55,813 nt of DNA from a virus (IMGVR_UViG_3300002460_000038:1-55813); one strand, 5' to 3'. Shown: positions 986 to 46,396, counted from the stretch's first letter. Notes: generated from the sequence alone by a model not told the origin. Made by a program: numbers and translations.

Positions 986-1585
986 CTACGCCCTGGCTAG
1001 AGCAGCACTTGGGATACCTGCCGTCCTACACCGAGCACGCCATCGTTCGAGCCGTTCTTCGTCCAACCATAGGCACGCGACAGGATTCAGCCCGTCCTGC
1101 AGCCGACCAATGAACAGTGCCAGTTCGTCGGTGAGTTCAAACCACTCCTGATTGATGCGGAGATGCGCAAACCGTTCGTGAACGGCAGCCTCAAGCGCGG
1201 CATGGCACGGTGTGGCGACGAGCAGTTCGAGGGGTTCCGAAGATGACGTCTGGAGCTTTGACCGTCGTTCCTCCGGGTCGACTGAACGGCCAATCTTCAC
1301 CTTCGTTCCAGCCCTCAAGGCGTACAGGTAGCACCATCCGTCGGGGCTGCGTGGCAAGAGCGGTTCGCGCTCCGGAAGTCTCGACAAAAAATCCCAATGT
1401 CCCCGCGCCCGCTCGTCAGTGCGCCAGCGGTCGATGACTTCCAGTGGCGTGGTCAACGGAAATCGCTTGTACGTCTCACGGCCACCGGCATGCTTAACCC
1501 GTGCCTCATATCCGTTCTTCTTGATGCGAATGCCTCTTGAAATACGAGTCGTCGTCGGCATGGCTGGCCGCTTTAGCGACGGCAT
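986..1585 (-). CDS. GIY-YIG (T5orf172/Mug113-like) nuclease with an N-terminal DNA-binding-like region
   Basis: YLYALRAGTKVKIGRS.DPEERRSKLQT...E.AVHERFAHLRINQEWF. Confidence 0.85.
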   Translation of the reverse strand: MPSLKRPAMPTTTRISRGIRIKKNGYEARVKHAGGRETYKRFPLTTPLEVIDRWRTDERARGHWDFLSRLPEREPLLPRSPDGWCYLYALRAGTKVKIGRSVDPEERRSKLQTSSSEPLELLVATPCHAALEAAVHERFAHLRINQEWFELTDELALFIGRLQDGLNPVACLWLDEERLERWRARCRTAGIPSAALARA

Positions 1586-1707
1586 CTCTCTGCTTCCGTT
1601 TCATGCGCGTTCGCACCACTCGCCGGACACTATTTTCGATGCTGTCCATTTAGCTCGCCCAGAAGCATAGCCGGTAAACCATTTAGAATCAGCATCTTGT
1701 AGGACAT

Positions 1708-1753
1708 AAACTTTTTGTTGACAAAAGTTTAGAATCGACACGATACTCTAGCC
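1708..1753 (+). promoter_or_regulatory. sigma70-type early promoter with an overlapping imperfect palindrome (operator); leaderless
   Basis: TTGACA 1718-1723, GATACT 1742-1747, ATG 6 nt later; palindrome aaactttttgt-tg-acaaaagttt. Confidence 0.65.
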
Positions 1754-1993
1754 ATGAAGCTGGGGCGGCGAGAGACGATCAAGAGAACGCTGAAGGCGCT
1801 CAGGGCAACGGCCGACCTCTCACAGATGGCCGTCGCCGAGCGAATTGGCGTGACGGGAAGACGCTACTGGCTCATTGAGAACGGGTATGAGCAGCCCACC
1901 GCCACCGAGTGCAATCGGTTGGCGAAGGTGCTCAAGGTCAAGGTTGACGAACTCGGGTTTCCCTCCTGTCAGGTCGAGGCACGGGCGTCATGA
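1754..1993 (+). CDS. Cro-like XRE HTH regulator
   Basis: LKALRATADLSQMAVAERIGVTGRRYWLIENG. Confidence 0.9.
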   Translation: MKLGRRETIKRTLKALRATADLSQMAVAERIGVTGRRYWLIENGYEQPTATECNRLAKVLKVKVDELGFPSCQVEARAS

Positions 1994-2721
1994 AGCCGGC
2001 GCCGAAGTACCTCACGGTTAAAGAAGCCGAGCAGCACCTGCGAGCCACCTACGGGCGCTCGTTCAAGCGGCATCTGCCTGCCGTGCGTCGGATGCCGGTG
2101 CGGGTGCAGTTGCGCACGTTGCGACTCGCCATCGGGAATCCCTCCCAGATCGAAGTCGAGCAGCTCGCACAGTTGCCGCGCGGTAAGTACTGGCGCATCG
2201 AGAACGGGTACGACGAACCCACACCAGAGGAACGCACGCGACTGGCCTTTGTGTTTCGCGTGAAACTTGCCGGCTTTGACAGTGACAAGGAACTCGGTGT
2301 GGCGATTGGCGACGAGGGACGGCCGATCAGCGCGTCGCAGCTCTCCGCGTGGTTCAGCCGCCAACCGAGGCACCGAGAACCCGCAGACCTGGCGCTTCGA
2401 ACAGCATCCCCGTTTAGGGCCAGCGCTCTTGCTCGCGCGGGCGGAAGTCACCGACGGAGCCGTCGTCAGGGTCTCGATCGAGTTGAACAGGAGGGTCGGA
2501 TGAATCGCATGGCCGTGGATTCGTCTCTGATCGCGAGCGCCGGACACGACGGGGACGCGATGGAAGTGGAACTCGCGAGCGGGCAGGTCTATCGGTACGA
2601 GGGGATCTCGCGCGAGCAGTACGACGCCTTTATGGCCTCGGACTCGAAGGGGAAGTACTTCAACGGCGTCATCAAGGGCGCGTGCGCGTCGTGCACGCGC
2701 GTGGATCGGCACGAGCACTAA
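1990..2721 (+). CDS. XRE HTH protein in frame with a C-terminal KTSC domain (KTSC probably has its own start at 2500)
   Basis: YWRIENGYDEPT HTH; VDSSLIASAGHD..MEVELASGQVYRY..SKGKYFN; RBS ggaggg before 2500. Confidence 0.75.
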   Translation: MKPAPKYLTVKEAEQHLRATYGRSFKRHLPAVRRMPVRVQLRTLRLAIGNPSQIEVEQLAQLPRGKYWRIENGYDEPTPEERTRLAFVFRVKLAGFDSDKELGVAIGDEGRPISASQLSAWFSRQPRHREPADLALRTASPFRASALARAGGSHRRSRRQGLDRVEQEGRMNRMAVDSSLIASAGHDGDAMEVELASGQVYRYEGISREQYDAFMASDSKGKYFNGVIKGACASCTRVDRHEH

Positions 2722-2770
2722 CAACGAAACGCCCGTAACGGCTGCCTGGAAGCTCCCCGTCACGGGCGTC

Positions 2771-4054
2771 ATGGAGAAAACGATGAGCAGTGTAGCACCC
2801 AATCTCATGAACGACAACGACGACCTGACCGACGTCATCGTCGACCCGAACCAACTGACGGCGAAGATTGCCGCCTGGAAAGCCGCGGGCTTCCACGTGC
2901 TCTCTCCGGCCATCAAGTTCACCAGCTTCGCCGTCAACTTCGGCGCGAACGTGGGCGCCCTGGTCATCAGCACCGACCCGGCGATGGGCGAGTGCTACTA
3001 CGACAAGGCGGCCATGAAGGAGGACGAGCGGGCGATTGCGCGCGTCGGCCTCGACAAATTCACGCAGCTCGCCGGCATCTCGTGGTTGCCGTCCAGCCGG
3101 CGCACCGACCCGCGCACGGTAATGAACCTGTGGGAATACCACGTCGATGGCGCCTTCGTCAGCTACGACGGCACGCCGCAAATCATCACCGGGACGTCGG
3201 AAGTCGACCTCCGTGACGGCGGCGCGCAGATTGGCGGTTGGACGCCGCAAGGCTGGAAGGACCTCCTGGCGGCGAACGTGGGGAAGCCCAAGGACCAATG
3301 CACCTGGAATATCGGCGGCTGGAGTGAGCAGCGCGTGATGAATGCGCGCCGGTTCGGGCTGCGGCTGGCGGAAACGAAGGCGAAGAACGCCGCCATTCGC
3401 ACGCTCGGCCTGAAGGGCAAGTACACGCTCGACGAGCTGGCGCGGCCGTTCATCATCCTGCGCTTCCAGTACATCCCGGACATGACCGACGCGAGCGTGC
3501 GGCACATGGTCGCCGCCGCGCACATGCGCGGTATCTCGGCGCTCTACGCCGGCACGGCACACCGGGAGCTGCCGGAACACACAGGCGGGGCCGACATCAT
3601 CGACATTTCGTCGGTGCGCCGGCCAGATCCGGTGCCGGTGTCCGTGGCGCCGCCGCCGGTGGCCGAGACACCACGGGCTGATAGTGCAGCGGCCAGCATC
3701 CAGGTCTCCAAAACCGAAGACGCCGGTTCGAGTCCGGCTCAGCCCGCCACGCCACCCGCCGCGCCCGACGTCTCCCCAGCGAACGTCATCAAGGAAGTGT
3801 CGCGGGAGACGAAGGCGTACGGGGCGAAGCACGCGAAGGCGGGCCAGACGTTTGTCAAGTTCCACATCATCGACGGGAACGGCGTCGACCACGTGACCAT
3901 CCGGGAGAACGTCGGTACGAAGGCGGAGAAGTACTGGCGCGAGCGCATTCCGGTGCGTATTAAGTCCGCGCTGAACGACTTCCGCGAGCAGGAGTTGTCG
4001 GCGATTGACCCGTTGCAGACGGCGCCCGTGGCGGCGGCGGAGATCCGGCTGTGA
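2771..4054 (+). CDS. phage recombination-module protein (putative ssDNA-annealing protein)
   Basis: Long ORF coupled to sbcD; LAETKAKNAAIR..Y..DEL.RPF motif; Pro/Ala linker. Function inferred from context. Confidence 0.55.
   Translation: MEKTMSSVAPNLMNDNDDLTDVIVDPNQLTAKIAAWKAAGFHVLSPAIKFTSFAVNFGANVGALVISTDPAMGECYYDKAAMKEDERAIARVGLDKFTQLAGISWLPSSRRTDPRTVMNLWEYHVDGAFVSYDGTPQIITGTSEVDLRDGGAQIGGWTPQGWKDLLAANVGKPKDQCTWNIGGWSEQRVMNARRFGLRLAETKAKNAAIRTLGLKGKYTLDELARPFIILRFQYIPDMTDASVRHMVAAAHMRGISALYAGTAHRELPEHTGGADIIDISSVRRPDPVPVSVAPPPVAETPRADSAAASIQVSKTEDAGSSPAQPATPPAAPDVSPANVIKEVSRETKAYGAKHAKAGQTFVKFHIIDGNGVDHVTIRENVGTKAEKYWRERIPVRIKSALNDFREQELSAIDPLQTAPVAAAEIRL
3675..3749 (+). tRNA. tRNA-Trp(CCA)-like sequence nested inside a CDS
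   Basis: Cloverleaf gggctga/tcagccc, gtgc/gcat, loop ctCCAaa, gccgg-ttcgagt-ccggc, discriminator G plus CCA; 2 mismatches in anticodon stem. Confidence 0.75.
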
Positions 4055-13884: not shown

Positions 13885-14814
13885 ATGTCCAAGAGCACCA
13901 TATCGACATTTCAACTATTCGAGCGGTTCCCGAATGCCGAGTCGGCGCGGGTCTACCTCGAAAAGCGCCTGTGGCCCGCTGGTGTCGTCTGCCCGGTCTG
14001 TAAGGCTGGTGAGCGCATCACGACGCGGAAGGGCGGGTACTACCGCTGCAACGCCTGTAACGAGGACTTCACGGTCAGGACGGGGACCATCTTCGAGCGG
14101 TCGCACGTTCCGCTGCACAAGTGGCTGTACGCGATGTATCTGCTCGTCACAGCGCGCAAGGGCATCAGCAGCTTGCAGCTTGCCAAGGAAATCGGCGTGA
14201 CGCAAAAGACGGCATGGTTCCTGCTCCATCGGCTGCGCGAAGCCTGCGGCGGGCGCAACCTGAAGAAGCTGCGCGGCATCGTGGAGATTGACGAGTGCTT
14301 CGTCGGCGGGCTCGAAGGGAACAAGCACGCGCACAAGAAGCTGCACGCTGGACGCGGGCCAGTCGGCAAAACGGCCGTGCTCGGGATGCGGGAACGCGGC
14401 GGGCGCACGGTTGCCAAGCCGTCGCAGCAGATGACCTTCGACGAACTGCACGGCGAGATTCACGCGAACGTCGAGCCCGGTTCCACGCTCTACACGGACG
14501 ACCACGCGATTTTCGAGGGGTTGGACGGCCTGTTCTTCCAGCACGACACCATCAACCACACCATCGGCGAGTACGCGCGCGGGCCGGTCAGCACGAACAG
14601 TATCGAAAGCGTCTGGGCCGTCCTGAAGCGCGGGATTCTCGGCGTCTATCACCACACCAGCCCGAAGCATTTGGCCCGCTACGTGGATGAATTTACGTTC
14701 CGGCTGAACGAAGGGAACGTCAAGGTTCACACGCTGGACCGGCTGGATTCGTTCGTGGATGGCGTCGTCGGCAAGCGCCTGACCTATGCGGGGTTGACCG
14801 AATGCCAAAACTGA
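13885..14814 (+). CDS. IS1595-family DDE transposase
   Basis: Zn ribbon CPVC..CNAC; FTVRTGTIFE.SH; VEIDE, YTDD, NSIESVW, YVDEFTFR. Confidence 0.95.
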   Translation: MSKSTISTFQLFERFPNAESARVYLEKRLWPAGVVCPVCKAGERITTRKGGYYRCNACNEDFTVRTGTIFERSHVPLHKWLYAMYLLVTARKGISSLQLAKEIGVTQKTAWFLLHRLREACGGRNLKKLRGIVEIDECFVGGLEGNKHAHKKLHAGRGPVGKTAVLGMRERGGRTVAKPSQQMTFDELHGEIHANVEPGSTLYTDDHAIFEGLDGLFFQHDTINHTIGEYARGPVSTNSIESVWAVLKRGILGVYHHTSPKHLARYVDEFTFRLNEGNVKVHTLDRLDSFVDGVVGKRLTYAGLTECQN

Positions 14815-20492: not shown

Positions 20493-20611
20493 ACGAGGAC
20501 GACATGAAGCGCGCGGACCGGGCGGTGATGTTCGCGGCCGCGGGGATTCTGGTGCTTGGGCTGGTGCTCTGGTCTGGCCTGGCGCTGCTCGTCGCGGCGG
20601 TGCTCCAGTGA
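20489..20611 (+). CDS. small membrane protein
   Basis: GTGA overlaps; one hydrophobic helix. Confidence 0.5.
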   Translation: MNEDDMKRADRAVMFAAAGILVLGLVLWSGLALLVAAVLQ

Positions 20612-20976
20612 TCGACGCTCGCGCGGCGTCGACCGCCCCTGATCGACCGCAGGCCCCAGATGCTGGCTTCCGGTCGGTCGGGGCGCTCATTCAGGACATC
20701 ACCGCTGCCCACGGGCGGATGTCTGCGAACAATCCCCATCGCGCCATCCTCGAGCAGTGCGGCATCGCGCTCGGCGAACTCGCCGTGCAGCTCCACAACG
20801 AGCGGTCGAAGCACCGCGCTGCGGTCAAGGCGGTCCTGGACGCGGTCGTCGACATGCGGAATGTCGTTGCAGAACATCGGAAGTGGGCAGACGGTCTGAA
20901 CTTGCCGCAAGAGTCGTTGCTGTCGGCGATTGACGGGTGGGAAGAGGCGCTGTCCGGCATCGAGGGAGTCGTGTGA
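20608..20976 (+). CDS. hypothetical protein
   Basis: Coupled start and stop overlaps. Confidence 0.6.
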   Translation: MIDARAASTAPDRPQAPDAGFRSVGALIQDITAAHGRMSANNPHRAILEQCGIALGELAVQLHNERSKHRAAVKAVLDAVVDMRNVVAEHRKWADGLNLPQESLLSAIDGWEEALSGIEGVV

Positions 20977-21194
20977 TGCCGAAGGTGCTCTGTCAGGCGG
21001 AGACGGTCAACGGCTGCTTCCGTGTCGTCACCGGGAGCCCGAAGGCGGGCAGCGCGCCCGTCGTCGAGCGGCGCTCGACACCGGACGCGATGGGGATCGA
21101 CGTCTGGCAGCCGGTGACGGCCGACTGTGCGCTGCACGCGCTCGAGGCCGTGGTCGGGTATTTCGCCGCGGCCGACGCGGGAGGCGACGCGTGA
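20976..21194 (+). CDS. hypothetical protein
   Basis: RBS gggag; TGATG overlap. Confidence 0.55.
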   Translation: MPKVLCQAETVNGCFRVVTGSPKAGSAPVVERRSTPDAMGIDVWQPVTADCALHALEAVVGYFAAADAGGDA

Positions 21195-24100
21195 ATGTTG
21201 TCCTCCTGGTCCTGCTGATGGCGACCACCGCAGTCCCTTCGCAGCGACGGTTGGGCGCGGCCGGCGTCGTCGAGACCCAGACGATTGATTGGGCCTCGCC
21301 CGTTCAGCACGCCGCGTTCAAGTACGGCCCGTTCCCGCAGCTCGCGTCCGGGGGCTTCGGCTGCGTGGCCGGTGATACGCGGATCTTCGATGCGGAGACG
21401 GCACGGGAGTGGACGTTTGCGCAACTCGCCGCCACTGGTCGTCAGCCGATCGTGTTGGCGTGGACGGGCGACGGGTTCGCGTGGGTGCGCGCGAGTGCAC
21501 CTGTTCGGAAGGGCGTGGCGCGGCTCTATCGGATTCGAACGCGGTCTGGGAAGTCCATCGTGGTTACTTCCGCCCACCGGTTTTTGACCGACTCAGGTTG
21601 GTCAAGTGCTGGCGATATGACCCGTTCCGATGCCCGCGCCGGACGCCTTCGAGTGTCCGACGTCGACCCTCTGGCGTCCACTCTGGGCATTTCCCTTTCA
21701 GTGTCTCAGCGAGATGTTGACTGTTTCCTGAATACAGGCGCAGGTTCTCAATCGCGTTGTGCTGGTGATCGTCGTCAACGTGATGGACGACCTCGGTCGG
21801 CTCGAGAAATCGTCCGATGGCCGCTTCCATCACCAGTCGGTGCTCGCGCACATAGCCTGCGGCGTTTGCGTGCGGATGTTGCGGACATTGCACCAGCACG
21901 TAGCCGTCCTTATCGATTGTCCGGCCGCCCTTCCAGTCTCGATGCTTCGCTCCAGGCTGCGCGCCTCGGTTCTGCACCGGGAAGCCATGACGATGACAGA
22001 AGCGGCGCACTTGCTCAGGCTCGACTGGGAGCCGGAGGCGCTCCTGAATCTCTGGACACGTCAAGCCTTGTTCTGCGAGATGGCGGATTTGGACAAGGAA
22101 CGGCACTAGCTGGCCACGCTCTTTCATGCCTTGATTATATCGTGGAAGTGGTGGATTTGGGTGAGGGTGAATTCTATGACGTGCACGTGCCCGTCTGGAA
22201 TAACTACCTCGCGCACGGCTTCATCAATCACAACTCCGGCAAGACCTACGAAGGCTGCCTGAAGGGCCTCTGGCTCTCGGATGTGTTCCCGCGTAACCGC
22301 GGGCTCATCTTCCGGTCCGTCGCCAAGGACCTCCGCGCGACGACGATGGCCACGTTCAAGAAAATCTGCCCGCCGTCGGCGTACAGCGCGCCGGATGCCG
22401 GATGGAACCGCATGGAGGGCCTGACCCGGTTGAACAACGGATCAGAGATTCTCTGGCTCGGGCTCGACAATCCGGAGCTCGAAGACATCCTGAAGGGGCT
22501 CGAAATCAACTGGTTCCTCGGCGACCAGGCGGAAGACACTGCCGAGGAAATCTTCGACACGCTCATGGGGCGCCTTGGCCGGTGGGACCAGGCGGAGGTG
22601 CCGCAATGGCTGCTCGATGAGGAAGATGCCGCCGGTCGCCCGTGGCGCTGGCGGCATCCTGTCTCCGGCAAGCCGACGCCGCCGACCTACCCGATGCTGA
22701 CGTGCAACCCGGACACCGAGCTGCACTGGCTGTATCGGCGCTTCCATCCCGAAAGCCCTGAGCATTACGACCGCCGCCTGCCGGACCTTGACCTGACGAC
22801 GGGCCAACCGACCGGCAAGCTCGTGAGCTATCACGACCTCGGGTACCGGCTGTTTCACATGCCGTCGCTCGAGAACAAGTTCCTGCCGGCGCAGAACCGC
22901 GCGCATCTGCTTGCGCAGGATGATGCGTTCCGCCGACGGTACGTCGAGGGCATCTGGGGCCTCCCGGAAGGCGCTATCCACGTCGTCGACAAGCGGTCGC
23001 TCATCACCTTGGAGGACCAGGCGCAGGCCGACGCGTTTCTCACGTTGCTGCGGGAGACGTGCACGCTGCACCGGTTCCTTGACCACGGCGACTCCGCGCC
23101 GACCTGCTGCCTGTGGCTGGCGATCGACCGCCAGGGCAACATGTTCTGGTTCCGCGAGTACTACGTTCCGAATCAGCTCATCTCGTATCACCGCCGCGAG
23201 ATCACGACCTTGTCGCAGGGTGAGCGGTACACCTTCAATCAGGCCGACCCGAGCATCTTCAACAAGACGATGCAGAAGCACGGCGGTCGCTGGTCGGTGG
23301 CCGACGAGTACGAGGACAAGCGCGAGAGCCCGGCTGAGACCGCCATCTTCTGGGAGCCAGCCGACAACAACGAGCTCGGCACCCGCAACCGCATCAACGA
23401 ATACCTCCGCATCGATCCGGAGCGCATCCACCCCTACACGAAGGAGCGCGGCGCGCCGCGGATGTTCTTCATCGTGCGGACGGACGCGTACCCGCAGGGC
23501 GTCATGCACGCGCTTCGTGAGACCAGGGCGCAGCGGCGCCAGAAGCTCGGGACCGAGATGGGGCGCCCGGTGTTCAGCGACGAGCGCGACGAGAACATTG
23601 CCGACCACGGGTATGACTGCCTCGCTGGCGACACGACTGTGCTCACGCGCGACGGGTGGCAGCCGATTGCGTCGCTGGTTGGAACCGAGAGCGACATCTG
23701 GACGCTGGCAGGGTGGCAGCCGTATACGGACTGCCGCCGTTACCGGAGTGGGAGCGCAATGGTTCGCGTTGAGACGCGCGAAGGCGCGTTCCGCTGCACG
23801 CCGGATCATTTGATTCTGACAAGCGATGGCTGGAAACGTGCCGACGCGCTCACGAGTCGTGATACCATAGCGCAATGCAACCAGTGGTCATATCTCGGAC
23901 CATTCAATCCTTCAAGGGACTCAGGTACTACCTCTGCGGCTTCTATTTTCAGCGCGATGGGAAGCGGCTTCATCGCGCAGTGTGGGAGCATCATCACGGC
24001 CCTGTGCCAGTTGGCCACCATGTCCATCACGTCGATGGCGACAGGGCCAATAATGGGGATGGCAACCTCGTGCTTCTCGCCGAATTCACGCACCTCAGCG

Positions 24101-24589
24101 GACACTCGAAACGATCAAAGCATGAGCGCGCCGTTGCCGCAATGCAGGCCGCTGCTAAGCGATGGCACGGCAGCGACGCCGGGAAGCAGTGGCACCGCGA
24201 ACACGTTGCCGACTCCCTCGGTGCGACGTGGATCCGCGACGTGGAGCGGGAATGCAGCGAGTGCGGCCGAACATATATGGCGGCTCGTGGCGCCGCGTCT
24301 CGAAGTTACGTCTGCAGCAACGCTTGCAAGAGCGTTCGGTTTCGGCGGCTCAACCCAGGTTACGACCGTCGTTTTAAGCGAACCCGCCGATAGCTACTGC
24401 CTGAGTGTTCCAGCCCCGCACGCGTTCGCGATTGCGGGTGGCTTCCTTGTCCATAACTGCCTCCGCTACGGCACGGCCAGCCGGGCGCCAGTTGCGCGGC
24501 AGCCACCGCCGAATGCCGACCCGCGGACGTTTGCCGGCCAGTCGCGGCTGTTGAAGCAGGCGTCGCGCCAAGTGCGGGGGGCGCGATGA
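21191..24589 (+). CDS. terL: terminase large subunit with two inteins
   Basis: Spliced Walker A GGFG|SGKT; TCNP; RRYVEGIW; FLDHG..PT; DPS; spliced DHGYD|CLRY. Confidence 0.93.
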   Translation: MNVVLLVLLMATTAVPSQRRLGAAGVVETQTIDWASPVQHAAFKYGPFPQLASGGFGCVAGDTRIFDAETAREWTFAQLAATGRQPIVLAWTGDGFAWVRASAPVRKGVARLYRIRTRSGKSIVVTSAHRFLTDSGWSSAGDMTRSDARAGRLRVSDVDPLASTLGISLSVSQRDVDCFLNTGAGSQSRCAGDRRQRDGRPRSAREIVRWPLPSPVGARAHSLRRLRADVADIAPARSRPYRLSGRPSSLDASLQAARLGSAPGSHDDDRSGALAQARLGAGGAPESLDTSSLVLRDGGFGQGTALAGHALSCLDYIVEVVDLGEGEFYDVHVPVWNNYLAHGFINHNSGKTYEGCLKGLWLSDVFPRNRGLIFRSVAKDLRATTMATFKKICPPSAYSAPDAGWNRMEGLTRLNNGSEILWLGLDNPELEDILKGLEINWFLGDQAEDTAEEIFDTLMGRLGRWDQAEVPQWLLDEEDAAGRPWRWRHPVSGKPTPPTYPMLTCNPDTELHWLYRRFHPESPEHYDRRLPDLDLTTGQPTGKLVSYHDLGYRLFHMPSLENKFLPAQNRAHLLAQDDAFRRRYVEGIWGLPEGAIHVVDKRSLITLEDQAQADAFLTLLRETCTLHRFLDHGDSAPTCCLWLAIDRQGNMFWFREYYVPNQLISYHRREITTLSQGERYTFNQADPSIFNKTMQKHGGRWSVADEYEDKRESPAETAIFWEPADNNELGTRNRINEYLRIDPERIHPYTKERGAPRMFFIVRTDAYPQGVMHALRETRAQRRQKLGTEMGRPVFSDERDENIADHGYDCLAGDTTVLTRDGWQPIASLVGTESDIWTLAGWQPYTDCRRYRSGSAMVRVETREGAFRCTPDHLILTSDGWKRADALTSRDTIAQCNQWSYLGPFNPSRDSGTTSAASIFSAMGSGFIAQCGSIITALCQLATMSITSMATGPIMGMATSCFSPNSRTSADTRNDQSMSAPLPQCRPLLSDGTAATPGSSGTANTLPTPSVRRGSATWSGNAASAAEHIWRLVAPRLEVTSAATLARAFGFGGSTQVTTVVLSEPADSYCLSVPAPHAFAIAGGFLVHNCLRYGTASRAPVARQPPPNADPRTFAGQSRLLKQASRQVRGAR
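21362..22234 (+). mobile_element. intein 1 (291 aa) in the TerL Walker A motif
   Basis: N-terminal CVAGDT; block B TSAHRF; FYDVHV..NNY..GFINHN followed by +1 Ser. Confidence 0.93.
21564..22127 (-). CDS. HNH homing endonuclease antisense within intein 1
   Basis: WKGGRTIDKDGYV..P.HP..GYVREHRLVME..IGRFL...EVVHHVDDD..HN.IENL; TATAAT 6 nt upstream. Confidence 0.88.
   Translation of the reverse strand: MKERGQLVPFLVQIRHLAEQGLTCPEIQERLRLPVEPEQVRRFCHRHGFPVQNRGAQPGAKHRDWKGGRTIDKDGYVLVQCPQHPHANAAGYVREHRLVMEAAIGRFLEPTEVVHHVDDDHQHNAIENLRLYSGNSQHLAETLKGKCPEWTPEGRRRTLEGVRRGHRNGSYRQHLTNLSRSKTGGRK
23618..24457 (+). mobile_element. intein 2 (280 aa) in the TerL nuclease domain
   Basis: CLAGDTTVLTRDG; CTPDHLILT; YCLSV..HAF..GFLVHN followed by +1 Cys. 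Confidence 0.93.
23875..24393 (+). CDS. HNH homing endonuclease in an alternative frame within intein 2
   Basis: RLHRAVWEHHHGPVP.GHHVHHVDGDRANN..GNL; C-terminal CSECG..CSNAC; TGnTACCAT 6 nt upstream. Confidence 0.88.
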   Translation: MQPVVISRTIQSFKGLRYYLCGFYFQRDGKRLHRAVWEHHHGPVPVGHHVHHVDGDRANNGDGNLVLLAEFTHLSGHSKRSKHERAVAAMQAAAKRWHGSDAGKQWHREHVADSLGATWIRDVERECSECGRTYMAARGAASRSYVCSNACKSVRFRRLNPGYDRRFKRTRR

Positions 24590-24765
24590 AGACATGGACT
24601 GTCCTCGTCGGTCCCGCAGCGATTCGCATCGGGAAGTATTGGCGTCCTGTGCTGTCAGGAGACGTGTGGCTTCCGCGGCGGTTCATGACACCAGAAGCGG
24701 CCCTGCGTTATGCGGCGCAGCAGGAAGCAAAACTCGCGCGGCCGGAGACGACGACACATGGCTAA
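24586..24765 (+). CDS. 59-aa hypothetical protein
   Basis: ATGA overlap with terL; overlaps the portal start. Confidence 0.45.
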   Translation: MKTWTVLVGPAAIRIGKYWRPVLSGDVWLPRRFMTPEAALRYAAQQEAKLARPETTTHG

Positions 24766-26737
24766 GAAGCCCGCGCCGAAGAAGGCCGCCTCGAAGGGCT
24801 CGGCCGTGCGCCGTGCCACTGCGCCACCGAAGGACGAGCGCGAAGAGGACCGCGTTAAGGATTGGTTCGGCAAGATCCGCGGCGCCGACAAGGCGTACGA
24901 GGAATGGGAGAAGCGCTTTTCCGTCAAACGCGGCGAGGACTATTACGAGGGGCGCCAGTGGTACGGGCTGCCCGAGGCCGACGCCGACAAGCGGTATGTC
25001 ATCAACATCACCGCCGCGGCCGTCGAGACGCAGAAGCCGTCCCTGCTCTTCGACAATCCACAAATCCGGATCGAGCCGCGTCCGTCGCGCAAGGACGAAC
25101 TGAGCCGCCAGACGCTCGACGATGAAGCCAAGCTGGCCACGCAGGCCGTGCAGACGTTCATCGACGACCCGGACGTCAAGTTCATACTCGAAACAGGGCT
25201 GGGCGTGCACGAGGCGCACTTCCGGTTCGGGCTCGTCGAGGTCGGCTACACCGCCGACTTCCTCGACAACCCGCACGCGGGCAAGCCGCTGATTCCGTCG
25301 GACCCGACCAAGGCGGGCGAGCTGCCGGAAGGCGCGGGCGAGAACACCGTCGACACGGAGGCAGAGGACGCGGCCACCGAGGCCGGCGCCGACGGCGAGG
25401 CGGAGGCTGGCCCGCTGCAGCCTGACAAGGTCGTCCAGCCTGGCACCGAGCGCATCTACGTGAAGCGCGTGCCCGCCGAGTCGTTCCGGGTGTCGCTGTC
25501 AGGCAAGAACGACCTCAGCGCCAACGATTGGGTCGGCTACTTCGAATGGGTGTACGTCAGCGACCTGAAGGCCAACGCCAAGTACAAGAACACCGATGAT
25601 CTGAAATCCACCGGCACCATTGACCAGAAATACCGCCCGAGTGCCAACAGTCAGGACCTCGAAGCGAAGCACGGCATGGTCAAGGTCTGGAAGCTCTGGG
25701 ACCTCCGTGGGAAGGTCAAGCACGTGCTGGCCGATGGGCATCAGAAGTTCCTGCTCGAAGGCGAGCCGTGGAAGATTGTCCCGTTCGCCGACCTGAAGTT
25801 CCTCGAGCGCCCGAACCACTACTACCCGAAGCCGGTGGTGTTCGACTGGCTCAGCCCGCAGGACGAGCTGAACGAGCAGCGCGAGCAGGCGCGGAACCAC
25901 CGCCGCCGGTTCGAGCGCAAGTACACGTACCGCGACGGGTCGATCGAGGACACCGAACTGCAGAAGCTTCAGGACGGCGGCGACGGCACCTTTGCGAAGT
26001 CGCTGAAGGAGCACCCCATCGAGCCGGTGCCGGACGCGCCGCTCGGCGCGCAGAACCTGCAGTCTGGCGCGATGGCCGAGCAGGACTTCACGATGGTCTC
26101 CGGGGTCAGCGGGGAGCAGCGCCAGGTGGCCACCGCCGACACCGCGACCCAAGCCAGCATCATGGACTCGCGGGCTAGGCTGCGCGAATCGGCTGCCCGC
26201 ATAAAGGTGCGGAATTGGCTCGGGCAGATCGGGCGCCTGATGCTCCTGCACATGCGCGAGCACATGACGCTGCCGTTCATCATCAAGCAGCAACTCGACC
26301 TCCAGACCGCCACGCCCGAGGAAGTCCTCATGACCGCGCTGCGGTGGCAGGCCATCACGGCGAAGGACCTCGGCGAAGTCGACATGGAAGTGTCGGTGTC
26401 CCTTGACTCGCTGTCGCCCATTGTCCAGGAGACGGAGCGCGCCTCGTGGAACCAGGTGCTGGCGCTCATCGCGAATCCCGGCATCCGCCTGATGCTCTCG
26501 TTCAGTGATGCGCTGCTCCGGAAGACGCTGGACCTCTACGGCGTCACCAGCGAGCGCGACATCGTCGAGCTGAAAGGCGTCATGCAGAAGATGACGGAGT
26601 TGGAGCAGCTTGCGGCTGGCGCAGCGATGGAGGGTGGCAGTGCTGGCGTGACGGCTACGGCCGGGCCGCAGAAGCAGCCGCCAATGCTGCCTGGTCACGC
26701 TGGCGCGTTGCCTCCGCCAGCAACGGTGGTGCAGTGA
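24758..26737 (+). CDS. portal protein (P22-like)
   Basis: Follows terL; DYYEGRQW, PQDELN, TATQA; ~660 aa. Confidence 0.85.
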   Translation: MAKKPAPKKAASKGSAVRRATAPPKDEREEDRVKDWFGKIRGADKAYEEWEKRFSVKRGEDYYEGRQWYGLPEADADKRYVINITAAAVETQKPSLLFDNPQIRIEPRPSRKDELSRQTLDDEAKLATQAVQTFIDDPDVKFILETGLGVHEAHFRFGLVEVGYTADFLDNPHAGKPLIPSDPTKAGELPEGAGENTVDTEAEDAATEAGADGEAEAGPLQPDKVVQPGTERIYVKRVPAESFRVSLSGKNDLSANDWVGYFEWVYVSDLKANAKYKNTDDLKSTGTIDQKYRPSANSQDLEAKHGMVKVWKLWDLRGKVKHVLADGHQKFLLEGEPWKIVPFADLKFLERPNHYYPKPVVFDWLSPQDELNEQREQARNHRRRFERKYTYRDGSIEDTELQKLQDGGDGTFAKSLKEHPIEPVPDAPLGAQNLQSGAMAEQDFTMVSGVSGEQRQVATADTATQASIMDSRARLRESAARIKVRNWLGQIGRLMLLHMREHMTLPFIIKQQLDLQTATPEEVLMTALRWQAITAKDLGEVDMEVSVSLDSLSPIVQETERASWNQVLALIANPGIRLMLSFSDALLRKTLDLYGVTSERDIVELKGVMQKMTELEQLAAGAAMEGGSAGVTATAGPQKQPPMLPGHAGALPPPATVVQ

Positions 26738-26952
26738 TGGCTGCGCTGGTGAGTCCGGCGCCCGGAGACGAGACCGTGTTCAAGGGCGGCGCGCTGTCGT
26801 CGGCGTTCTTCACCGGTCAGATTCAGGCGTGGCGCCGCGAGCCGGCGACGACGGCCGGCTTTGAGTGGGTGTGTTTGGAATTCGAGGGGGGCGGCTCCGT
26901 GCAGATTCTCACGGGCAATCCGCTGGTGTGGATCGAGCCCGAACGGCACTGA
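26734..26952 (+). CDS. hypothetical protein
   Basis: Overlaps the portal stop. Confidence 0.55.
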   Translation: MMAALVSPAPGDETVFKGGALSSAFFTGQIQAWRREPATTAGFEWVCLEFEGGGSVQILTGNPLVWIEPERH

Positions 26953-26954
26953 CG

Positions 26955-27167
26955 ATGGCCTACCACAAGATTTCGCACCCGACGCGCGAAATGGCAGACG
27001 CCCACCGACGAGGCATGTTGGCAATCACGACGGAGCATCCGAAACGTCAGGCGGCCCTCGAAACGTACTGGTGCACGGTCTGCGACGCGTTTCATGTCGG
27101 CCACCGACGGTCACCGATCGCGCTGGCGCGCGTCCGGGCGCGCGGCGCACGGCTGAAGAGGCACTGA
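26955..27167 (+). CDS. small Zn-binding hypothetical protein
   Basis: YWCTVCDAFHVGH motif. Confidence 0.6.
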   Translation: MAYHKISHPTREMADAHRRGMLAITTEHPKRQAALETYWCTVCDAFHVGHRRSPIALARVRARGARLKRH

Positions 27168-27169
27168 AT

Positions 27170-27577
27170 ATGGGAGCAAAACGCCAATACGTGCAGATTG
27201 TCGAGCGCGTACTCGGGCGCCCTTTACCACCTGGCGCCATCGTCCATCACGTGGACCAGGACCGAGAGAACGAGCGGAACGACAACTTGTGCGTCCTTCA
27301 AGATTCAGCCGAACACGTCAGGCTGCATCGCAGGCTCAGAATTCTGCAGGCCGGTGGGAATCCTTGGACGCAGCAGATTTGCTGCACGTGCCAGCAGGTG
27401 AAAGACATCGACCAGTTCCCGCCATCCCGCCGAACGAGTAGCGGCGAATGTCATCCGTGCCTTGCTCGTCGAAGAACGCCTTCACCCGAAACGTACGACC
27501 AACGCCGAGAGCGGAATCGCCGCGCTGCCCAATCGCGCTGGCGAAAAGAACGGGAGGTGTGCCACGCCTCTTTATGA
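27170..27577 (+). CDS. HNH endonuclease (paralogue of 8017-8553)
   Basis: VERVLGRPLPPGAIVHHVDQDRENERNDNL..GGNPWTQ..CCTC. Confidence 0.85.
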   Translation: MGAKRQYVQIVERVLGRPLPPGAIVHHVDQDRENERNDNLCVLQDSAEHVRLHRRLRILQAGGNPWTQQICCTCQQVKDIDQFPPSRRTSSGECHPCLARRRTPSPETYDQRRERNRRAAQSRWRKEREVCHASL

Positions 27578-45721: not shown

Positions 45722-46396
45722 TTATAAATGGTCGTCAAATCGCACGACGGACGGCGGACGGCAATGCAGCAACCGAATGGGAATGCCCAGATTCTGCAGA
45801 TCGCGCCTGAGCATCAAGCGCACCGGCGCATCTGGGAACTCGCTCGCCATCATGCGCAGCTTGTCGTCTGTGTCTTGGCGACGTTGGCCCTTGACCTCCA
45901 CGTAGGTTTGCCAGCCGTCGACCCAGAAATCTGGCGTGAACCGGCGACCATCCGACAGCAGGAAGGACCTTGGTTCGTAGCTCCAGCGAAGGCAGTTGTC
46001 ATCAAGCCATCTGGCGAAATGAACCTCGAATCCTCCCCTGAGGCGACAGACATCGCCATTCCTGCGGCGATACTCGATAGGCGCCCGCAGTGGCTTCCTG
46101 GTGCCAGCGCTGTACGTCGCTTGGAGCTTGCGTCTAAAACGTCGTCGGTAACGCGCGTCGGTGGTGAGTCGGCGGTGATGGTGCTCATGAAGATTCGCAG
46201 GTCCGGTGACTCGATTCTTCGCGTCCTTTGGAAGCGTCCAGGTGTGCCGGCCTGGAATAGCGCTGTCGGCCAGTCGCCGCCGAATGACTCTGTCGGAACA
46301 GCCGAACCGCGCAGCGATGGCGCGCATCGACAGCCGGTCTTCGGTGTAGAGCCGTCTAATCTCTGCGTCGTCGACTGGCGTGCGGGGTCTAGGCAT
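45722..46396 (-). CDS. HTH plus PD-(D/E)XK endonuclease, antisense
   Basis: LSMRAIAARFGCS; FE..FA.WLD....W.YEP....FTPDF....YVEVKG. Confidence 0.8.
   Translation of the reverse strand: MPRPRTPVDDAEIRRLYTEDRLSMRAIAARFGCSDRVIRRRLADSAIPGRHTWTLPKDAKNRVTGPANLHEHHHRRLTTDARYRRRFRRKLQATYSAGTRKPLRAPIEYRRRNGDVCRLRGGFEVHFARWLDDNCLRWSYEPRSFLLSDGRRFTPDFWVDGWQTYVEVKGQRRQDTDDKLRMMASEFPDAPVRLMLRRDLQNLGIPIRLLHCRPPSVVRFDDHL

Follow-up and report, generated by a model that had tools for sequence, protein, structure and literature searches.

An HNH endonuclease gene nested out of frame in a terminase intein: a probable homing element with many nested relatives in metagenomic viruses

The terminase large subunit (TerL) gene of the IMG/VR virus record IMGVR_UViG_3300002460_000038 is interrupted by two inteins, the second of which (intein 2) contains a complete gene for an HNH endonuclease (HNH2) that is read in another frame of the same strand. 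The record is linear and 55,813 nucleotides (nt) in length, with an estimated completeness of approximately 57%, and is referred to here in its entirety as the window. HNH2 occupies the loop of intein 2 in which canonical inteins hold an in-frame endonuclease, and the TerL frame continues through the nuclease gene between the two halves of the splicing domain. Intein 2 and HNH2 are likely to form a composite selfish homing element. Among the loci surveyed, this hidden layout is the rule rather than a curiosity for the HNH2 family in metagenomic phages, and both of the overlapping frames carry signs of constraint in the relatives.

The nested HNH2 gene

The HNH2 open reading frame (ORF) lies in phase +2 relative to TerL, two bases ahead, and is uninterrupted (Table 1). 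It is closed upstream by a TGA at 23860-23862, four codons before the ATG, and ends at a TAG approximately 21 codons short of the C-terminus of intein 2. The product matches the Pfam family HNH_3 (PF13392) with an E-value of 5.5e-12 and 45.6 bits, the cut-off being 24.8, and shares 42-44% identity over approximately 90% of its length with the products of HNH genes of cultured phages. A chance ORF is ruled out by the Pfam match and the full-length homologues. The protein combines an HNH_3 domain of the I-HmuI-like type with a C4 zinc ribbon and a helical region that bears two WH motifs. A 14-sequence alignment of the family has 16 invariant columns, every one of which HNH2 retains, among them the four zinc-ribbon cysteines and two Trp-His pairs; the invariant residues H51, N60 and N64 are present, as are H52, H73 and H77, which are conserved in at least 90% of the rows.

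The structural model of HNH2 has a mean pLDDT (predicted local distance difference test) score of 88.8. A profile of the HNH2 family matches I-HmuI (PDB 1u3e) with an E-value of 9e-4, and VIA-align places residues 1-78 on I-HmuI with a Z score of 7.8 and a root-mean-square deviation of 2.5 Å over 71 residues, the next row having a Z score of 4.8. A Foldseek search of the PDB with the whole HNH2 model gave no match at E <= 0.001, the best match being I-HmuI with an E-value of 0.08. As judged from its sequence, HNH2 belongs to the HNH_3 endonucleases that resemble I-HmuI, and it bears a C4 zinc ribbon. An earlier note, made from the letters of the window without database searches, had described an HNH and zinc-finger protein lying wholly inside an intein with Ser/Thr-rich in-frame filler; both parts of this description are borne out, the former by the PF13392 match and the four retained cysteines and the latter by translation and by the composition given below.

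The splicing domain of intein 2

Intein 2 is inserted in the C-terminal nuclease motif of TerL, at DHGYD↓CLRY (the arrow marks the insertion point), and the spliced product would read ...DHGYD-CLRY.... The putative nucleophiles are Cys1 (23618-23620) and the +1 Cys of the C-extein (24458-24460), block B is represented by Thr61-x-x-His64, and the intein ends in His279-Asn280. An alignment was assembled from 34 loci with canonical ends, less L079, to which intein 2 of the window was added; across these 34 aligned inteins C1, T61, H64 and N280 are invariant columns, all of which intein 2 keeps. An AlphaFold2 model of intein 2, built on an alignment with the 33 related inteins, is confident at residues 1-90 and approximately 241-280, with block means of pLDDT of approximately 86-98. 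With Foldseek, this model matches the NrdJ-1, Ssp DnaB, Npu DnaB and gp41-1 mini-inteins and split-intein fusions (E-values of 2e-5 to 1e-3), with target template modelling (TM) scores of up to 0.84. The whole TerL product scores 57.4 bits against Pfam Intein_splicing (PF14890) in two stretches. On the evidence of the model, intein 2 is a class-1 mini-intein with a Hint splicing domain. That it splices is inferred because TerL is essential and the host frame is kept open.

Nested relatives in metagenomic and cultured sources

Relatives of HNH2 were sought in two surveys of IMG/VR, in which the counts are of loci, not of lineages (L072, for example, is the same contig as L025). A pattern scan with HNH2 (survey 1) gave 21 loci, and a profile scan (survey 2) gave at least 591 pattern matches, of which 217 were confirmed and the best 80 of the 217 were kept. 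In survey 1, the HNH match lies in another sense frame inside an ORF of 711-865 amino acids (aa) at 15 of 21 loci. At L020, the contig end truncates the locus, with the intein C-terminus visible; L026, L027 and L028 are free-standing, and L031 and L034 were placed in neither class. L031 holds at 879-1715 a 279-aa open stretch with two tandem HNH-like modules (...AVWE..YGP.P.G..(I/V)HHKD...) and no long ORF around it. In survey 2, 68 of the best 80 loci are nested in a spanning sense ORF of at least 350 aa, with the host frame at +1 relative to HNH in 60, as in the window, and at +2 in eight. No antisense nesting was seen among the best 80 loci of survey 2, and in none of approximately 100 loci from the surveys, the metagenome-assembled genomes (MAGs) and GenBank record OP947163 does the HNH share the frame of the host ORF.

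A scan of prokaryotic MAGs with a single-protein query found two loci, both nested and one in each phase, in a Gammaproteobacteria MAG and a Ca. Peribacteria MAG. The complete genome of Rhodobacteraceae phage LS06-2018-MD07 (OP947163) has an HNH relative nested in terL in the same relative phase as in the window, with its ATG preceded by GGCGGAGGGAATCAC; no other nested copy was found in a deposited phage genome. Only the terminase coding sequence (CDS) is annotated in this record, the nested gene being unannotated, in line with the expectation of the earlier note that gene callers would miss such genes. The hosts of the nested relatives belong to diverse TerL families, and their inteins occupy several different points of the conserved His/Asp nuclease motif (..DH↓C, ..HDDx↓C or ..NH↓C, then C.DA.RY). 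The recurrence of an intein shell with an out-of-frame nuclease, which the earlier note had suggested from the two cases in the window and whose absence from related inteins it had named as grounds for refutation, is thereby supported.

The remaining loci of survey 2 reveal alternative layouts. Eleven of the 12 non-nested loci were inspected, L082 being identical to L081. At L040, L050, L051, L073, L081 and L084, the N-terminal part of TerL and an intein N-fragment end the upstream ORF right before the HNH gene, and at L084 and L110 an intein C-fragment and the C-terminal end of TerL lie directly 3' of the HNH gene. In these seven loci, terL looks split on the basis of sequence, with the HNH gene between the halves of a split intein. 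The HNH gene follows an intact terL at L060 and L086, while L087 and L101 were placed in neither class. A free-standing homologue is located between terL and the portal gene at L026 and L027 and in phages PAE1, SN1, Shemara and Poludnitsa; that of Brevundimonas phage Poludnitsa is unannotated. A quick HNH tree of 93 rows, from which L068 and the duplicate L072 were omitted, leaves 49 of its 89 inner branches open. In it, the free, +1 and +2 states form clusters that are interleaved, and its well-supported branches call for no fewer than two changes between the free and the nested state; it gives no order of events.

Constraint on both reading frames

Read in the TerL frame, the HNH2 stretch yields a peptide rich in Ser, Thr, Ala and Gly. 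Ser and Thr account for 27% of intein 2 residues 95-245 as against 10% of the middle extein, and residues 95-122, 124-177 and 188-210 have AlphaFold2 pLDDT values below 50 and are predicted to be disordered. By codon position, the G+C content of the stretch is a coding-like 0.65/0.49/0.67 in the HNH frame and 0.49/0.66/0.66 in the TerL frame, where the TerL exteins have 0.64/0.44/0.88; within the stretch, the coding-like pattern belongs to the HNH frame only.

The relatives provide a view of selection on each frame. Between L017 and L019, substitutions in the nested stretch number 28/21/58 by codon position of the HNH frame, which equates to 21/58/28 in the TerL frame. By TerL-frame position, they number 124/108/202 in the N-extein, 10/7/26 in the N-terminal splicing part and 5/3/24 in the C-terminal part. 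The position-3 peak moves to the HNH frame within the nested stretch, and protein-level selection thus changes frames exactly at the nested ORF. The host frame was examined with synonymous shuffles of the HNH gene, a test that is conditional in that the nested set is itself defined by an open host frame: at 40 of 66 nested loci the host frame is open in fewer than 5% of 300 shuffles (median 2.7%), and at all eight loci of the other phase it is open in 0 of 300, with 7-13 stops expected. As 68 of 80 loci are open where a few per cent would be expected, read-through in the host frame is required. From these sequence patterns, both the HNH frame and the host frame are constrained in the relatives.

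Start signals of the nested genes

The earlier note had placed an extended -10 motif, TG-a-TACCAT, 6 nt before the HNH2 ATG, and it is present in the sequence as described. The motif includes the TGA that closes the HNH frame upstream, and it makes use of the Ile codon ATA, which encodes 4 of the 303 Ile residues of nine large genes. Among the 1221 ATGs on both strands of the window, TAnnnT is found at -12 to -7 in six, with TG also present in one, that of HNH2. Two of the six are the starts of HNH2 and of the nuclease gene nested in the first intein (HNH1, described below), and another is the start of an IS1595-family transposase gene. The combination of TGaTAnnAT, 6 nt and ATG is common to the relatives L047, L089 and L095.

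Many relatives have a start signal of another kind. A Shine-Dalgarno 4-mer (GGAG, GAGG or AGGA) lies 4-16 nt before the first in-frame ATG in 39 of 79 nested relatives, as against 10% at control positions, and Shine-Dalgarno 5-mers precede the nested ATG in 31 of 79, as against 5%. Of the relatives that lack a Shine-Dalgarno motif, 8 of 41 have TAnnnT 5-8 nt before the ATG, compared with 0 of 37 relatives that carry the motif, the respective control rates being 5.4% and 3.6%. The proposal of the earlier note that such nucleases are self-promoted is a reading of the sequence: a -10-like hexamer does stand exactly 6 nt before both nested ATGs of the window, but it is not a general feature of the family. 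Whether HNH2 is expressed as a leaderless transcript from a -10-only promoter within intein 2 is evenly balanced on the sequence, and independent initiation of the nested HNH gene by some means is much more likely than this particular step.

Two further genes in the window have comparable upstream sequences. The IS1595-family transposase gene (13885-14814, + strand; DDE_Tnp_IS1595, E-value of 1.6e-39, plus its zinc ribbon) has an ATG preceded by TTGACT, 18 nt, TAGAAT and 6 nt, a leaderless geometry matching that of HNH1 and HNH2. A 224-aa ORF at 45725-46396 on the - strand, with weak sub-threshold matches to Phage_endo_I and HTH_38, is preceded by TAGAGT and 7 nt before its ATG and may be another self-promoted nuclease-like gene.

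Mobility and a proposed mechanism

The distribution of intein 2 is sporadic. Nine relatives of TerL were found in IMG/VR at 53-80% identity, and an intein at site 2 is absent from all nine; these intein-less relatives read DH(G/A)YD, then C (five), P (two) or V (two), then xRY. The intein at site 1 is likewise absent from all eight of the nearest TerL relatives that cover that site. Between L017 and L019, 39% of bases differ in the N-extein and approximately 17% in the intein and HNH, the pattern expected if the composite had moved between diverged terL genes.

A mechanism can be proposed in which an HNH_3 gene of the free-standing type occupies the loop where canonical inteins hold an in-frame endonuclease and is read in the +2 frame. 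Ribosomes on terL would read through the HNH gene, producing a linker of approximately 150 residues that is predicted to have no fold. The N- and C-terminal splicing halves would then associate, excise intein 2 and ligate the nuclease motif of TerL. HNH2 would be started independently at its own ATG, here probably from a leaderless, -10-only promoter and in about half of the relatives from an apparent internal Shine-Dalgarno site. The enzyme would most likely nick or cut the intein-less terL of co-infecting relatives near the DHGYD↓C(V/L)RY codons, and repair would copy the intein and the nuclease gene jointly, with the insertion destroying the target and providing immunity. The sporadic distribution and the habits of the family are the grounds for proposing this cutting and homing step.

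The free-standing and split-intein forms suggest a route by which the composite may have arisen, namely the invasion of a mini-intein by a terL-adjacent homing nuclease gene at that gene's own target. Insertions that left the terL frame open would have given nested genes, and others would have given split inteins.

A broader proposal, held tentatively and with slightly more doubt than belief, is that a large clade of I-HmuI-like HNH nucleases, specialised on the terminase nuclease motif, has out-of-frame nesting as its favoured and lasting condition and not as a passing accident. If so, the intein would serve the nuclease as both a safe harbour and an immunity device, and the nuclease's own start signals would uncouple its timing and dose from late terL expression. 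In-frame fusion, seen in none of the approximately 100 loci, would be selected against, and the element would cycle between free-standing genes beside terL, nesting in a contiguous intein, and a position between split-intein halves. An entire layer of phage nuclease genes would then escape standard gene calling, and the textbook view of the endonuclease as an intein domain would represent one of several outcomes.

Points against a homing element and alternative explanations

Several observations weigh against the interpretation of intein 2 and HNH2 as an active, independently expressed homing element. On Pfam Intein_splicing, intein 2 taken by itself reaches 28.1 bits, short of the gathering score of 35.8. 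The element of the window has no close relative of its own, and selection on HNH2 there rests on the intact ORF and the conserved residues. The TerL frame remains open through HNH2 in 973 of 2000 synonymous shuffles, and its openness in this G+C-rich sequence carries no weight by itself. The proportions of nested loci in the two surveys are not population frequencies, as both sets were sought with patterns from nested copies and include near-duplicates. The conservation of the -10-like motif in L047, L089 and L095 may partly reflect the intein frame, since TGATA overlaps conserved intein codons (..D-T/I..). Among the sequencing runs listed for the stretch, none is an RNA run. With regard to ongoing homing, no intein-less or HNH-less allele was seen in the identical contigs of four other DNA runs, which are fragmentary and contain no joints.

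The last of these points would also suit the explanation that HNH2 is a silent passenger, recently invaded or inactivated and not expressed, with intein 2 a vertically spread mini-intein that has a junk loop. The HNH2 ATG has no Shine-Dalgarno motif before it, and a scan for two-hexamer sigma-70 promoters at 20500-25000, which is blind to -10-only promoters, found 0 sites where 0.5 would be expected. The third-position G+C of HNH2 (0.67, compared with 0.88 in the phage's own genes) makes the gene look foreign and un-ameliorated. Decay does happen in the family: at L068 (1930-2436), a stop lies inside the HNH match while the host terminase-intein frame is open, and the locus looks like a decaying nested nuclease gene. 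Set against these points, HNH2 is intact over 172 codons with all 16 invariant residues and a confident model, a -10-like motif at this leaderless spacing, which it has in common with the independent HNH1, stands before very few ATGs of the window, and in the relatives purifying selection falls on the HNH frame. A silent passenger is accordingly considered improbable.

HNH proteins reportedly assist cos cleavage in HK97-like phages, an observation ascribed to Kala et al. in 2014, and HNH2 could in principle be a terminase helper rather than a homing enzyme, located inside terL merely because packaging genes cluster. The free-standing homologues that adjoin terL in cultured phages are in keeping with such a role, as are a third HNH_3 ORF right after the portal gene of the window and the HNH genes beside cos and the terminase genes of many phages, as described in the available part of PMC3592412. 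The absence of intein 2 and its nested gene from all nine nearest TerL relatives is unlike an essential partner, the far lower divergence of intein and HNH than of exteins in L017 and L019 points to horizontal movement, both the fold and the profile of HNH2 match the homing endonuclease I-HmuI, and the gene lies where an intein has its endonuclease loop. A helper function is thus very unlikely.

Least credible of all is that HNH2 is an endonuclease domain belonging to the intein itself, with programmed ribosomal frameshifting giving access to it or with a sequencing or assembly artefact causing the offset: HNH2 does sit on the same strand exactly where in-frame endonuclease domains sit, and in-frame HNH inteins exist (cited in the part of bioRxiv 10.1101/2025.01.02.630785 that was available), but the TGA before the ATG and the TAG before block F mean that two compensating shifts would be needed, the same offset recurs in 60 of the best 80 loci with the other offset in eight, many nested genes have their own Shine-Dalgarno site, and the four other DNA runs yield identical contigs. 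These letter-identical contig pieces cover 23250-24371 and come from public soil, sediment and groundwater metagenomes, and they rule out a private assembly error as the source of the offset between the HNH2 and TerL frames. The composite homing element formed by intein 2 and HNH2 remains the favoured interpretation.

The terminase locus and its second nested nuclease

The middle extein of TerL matches annotated terminase large subunits. A small-subunit gene (Terminase_2) lies before the TerL ORF and a portal-sized ORF after it. The start codon is located somewhere 3' of 20930. The features of the locus, together with those of OP947163, are listed in Table 1.

Table 1. Features of the interrupted terL gene in the window and of its counterpart in OP947163.
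Feature	Position	Strand	Basis or remark
TerL precursor ORF, two inteins	20930-24589	+	ORF scan
Intein 1, 291 aa, CVAGDT...GFINHN then S	21362-22234	+	Inserted in Walker A motif GGFG↓SGKT
HNH1, 187 aa, HNH_3, antisense inside intein 1	21564-22127	-	PF13392, E-value of 4e-8
TerL middle extein, separating intein 1 from intein 2	22235-23617	+	
Intein 2, 280 aa, CLAGDT...FLVHN then +1 Cys	23618-24457	+	Translation, alignment, model
Extended -10-like motif TGaTACCAT	23860-23868	+	Six bases (agcgca, 23869-23874), then HNH2 ATG
HNH2, 172 aa and stop, wholly inside intein 2	23875-24393	+	ORF scan, Pfam
TerL-frame read-through of HNH2, Ser/Thr/Ala/Gly-rich, approximately intein residues 95-245	23900-24352	+	Composition, model
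TerL C-extein (CLRYGTASR...) and stop codon	24458-24589	+	
terL CDS of OP947163 (L001)	1391-3667		Intein EDH↓CFAAG...VSN↓SYDSLRY
Nested HNH ORF of OP947163 (L001), 161 aa	2989-3474		

Intein 1 is inserted in the Walker A motif of TerL and its segment 21395-22240 scores 38.0 bits on Intein_splicing; compared over this segment, it resembles intein 2 weakly. The antisense HNH1 gene within it has its ATG 6 nt beyond a perfect TATAAT (22139-22134, minus strand), and the TerL frame through HNH1 is open in 53 of 2000 synonymous shuffles. HNH1 has one relative in IMG/VR, L035, which is also nested antisense, in an intein at the Walker A site of another terminase, with TTGACA, 16 nt, TAATGT and then 9 nt before its ATG; the antisense layout therefore recurs as well. 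The two nucleases have a 20-residue core match alone, and this limited match, along with the weak resemblance of the inteins, marks the two elements as independent acquisitions. The earlier note's picture of two dissimilar HNH proteins in two orientations within one terminase is consequently accurate, with HNH1 antisense and HNH2 sense.

The third HNH_3 ORF of the window (approximately 27170-27577, + strand, within the ORF 26861-27577; E-value of 2.4e-7) is free-standing and lies just 3' of the portal-sized gene. It shares weak similarity with HNH2 in the core motif (E-value of 2e-4).

Comparison with known systems

Inteins with out-of-frame or antisense endonuclease genes are already known for other nuclease families, and the novelty implied by the earlier note was too high in light of two preprints, the available parts of which describe such inteins (bioRxiv 10.1101/2025.01.02.630785 and 10.64898/2026.09.14.751524). 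Both credit Gorbalenya 1998 with the first such case or proposal in those parts. An out-of-frame HNH inside an intein was not found described in the literature searched, the supplementary tables of the preprints being outside the search.

In the actinobacteriophage inteins of Gosselin, Arsenault and Gogarten (bioRxiv 10.1101/2025.01.02.630785), an endonuclease VII-like gene is read in frame 3 and LAGLIDADG or VSR-like genes are antisense, according to the text at hand. As in the window, the splicing blocks flank an endonuclease gene whose frame or strand is not that of the intein, the hosts include TerL, no structure is recognisable in the in-frame region, and a free-standing endonuclease gene is proposed to have invaded an intein. 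Where those inteins have HNH in frame only, within the portion of the preprint available, the window has an HNH_3, I-HmuI-like nuclease in a non-actinophage from groundwater or soil. Beyond that account, as far as its accessible text extends, are the two elements in one terL, the large metagenomic family, the avoidance of stops in the host frame, and the start signals; the terms promoter, Shine-Dalgarno and ribosom- are not mentioned in that text.

The cyanobacterial dnaX intein of Phillips, DeSimone and Gogarten (bioRxiv 10.64898/2026.09.14.751524) carries a LAGLIDADG endonuclease in a +2 ORF. According to the part of the preprint available, it resembles intein 2 in having a sense +2 ORF over a disordered in-frame stretch, purifying selection on the endonuclease frame, and a proposed secondary invasion of a mini-intein. 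It is unlike intein 2 in its nuclease family and in its host, a cellular replication gene, whereas the window has an HNH in a phage terminase; HNH is not mentioned in the same part of the text.

The ShiLan insertion of Arsenault et al. (Genes 2025; PMC11855218) is an out-of-frame HNH in a mycobacteriophage DNA methylase. As described in the available part of that article, the HNH again lies hidden in a sense frame offset from the stop-free frame of its host, and a leaderless start was proposed because a ribosome-binding site is lacking. Unlike intein 2, which would remove the read-through peptide, the ShiLan insertion is reported there to have no splicing domain and is thought to remain as a loop.

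In the fractured genes of Dassa et al. 2009 (PMC2677866), GIY-YIG or Vsr-like genes lie between split-intein halves, with HNH only suggested in the part of the article available. That text has in common with the present case an endonuclease gene at the endonuclease position of the intein and a phage terminase among the hosts. The terL of the window differs in being a single continuous ORF, and the split terL loci among the relatives of HNH2 (L040 and others) do show the fractured-gene layout, with an HNH enzyme.

I-HmuI is an intron-encoded HNH nicking endonuclease from a group I intron of Bacillus phage SPO1 (PDB 1u3e), while HNH2 is located in an intein; their C-terminal DNA-binding modules also differ, that of HNH2 consisting of helices and the C4 zinc ribbon. 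Full-length homologues of HNH2 are present in Pseudomonas phage PAE1 (YP_009215694), Sphaerotilus phage SN1, Brevundimonas phage Poludnitsa and Salmonella phage Shemara and, unlike HNH2, are separate genes after an intein-less terL. Packaging HNH proteins of the HK97 gp74 type are conserved partners of the terminase, and HNH2 differs from them in that the nested gene is absent from the nine nearest TerL relatives.

The present case adds the frequency of the layout in metagenomes, the constraint on two frames, the two alternative start signals, the double occupancy of one terL, and the series of nested, split and free-standing forms in a single nuclease family. This series makes the model of an invaded mini-intein directly testable, with the DHGYD↓C site and the free-standing homologues of cultured phages, such as PAE1 and Shemara, as targets. 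Databases and gene callers overlook genes of this kind, as the terL annotation of OP947163 illustrates, and the read-through linkers show the tolerance of the splicing domain for foreign sequence, which may be of use to intein engineering. To the nuclease families known to be carried out of frame or antisense in inteins, the HNH_3, I-HmuI-like family is added here.

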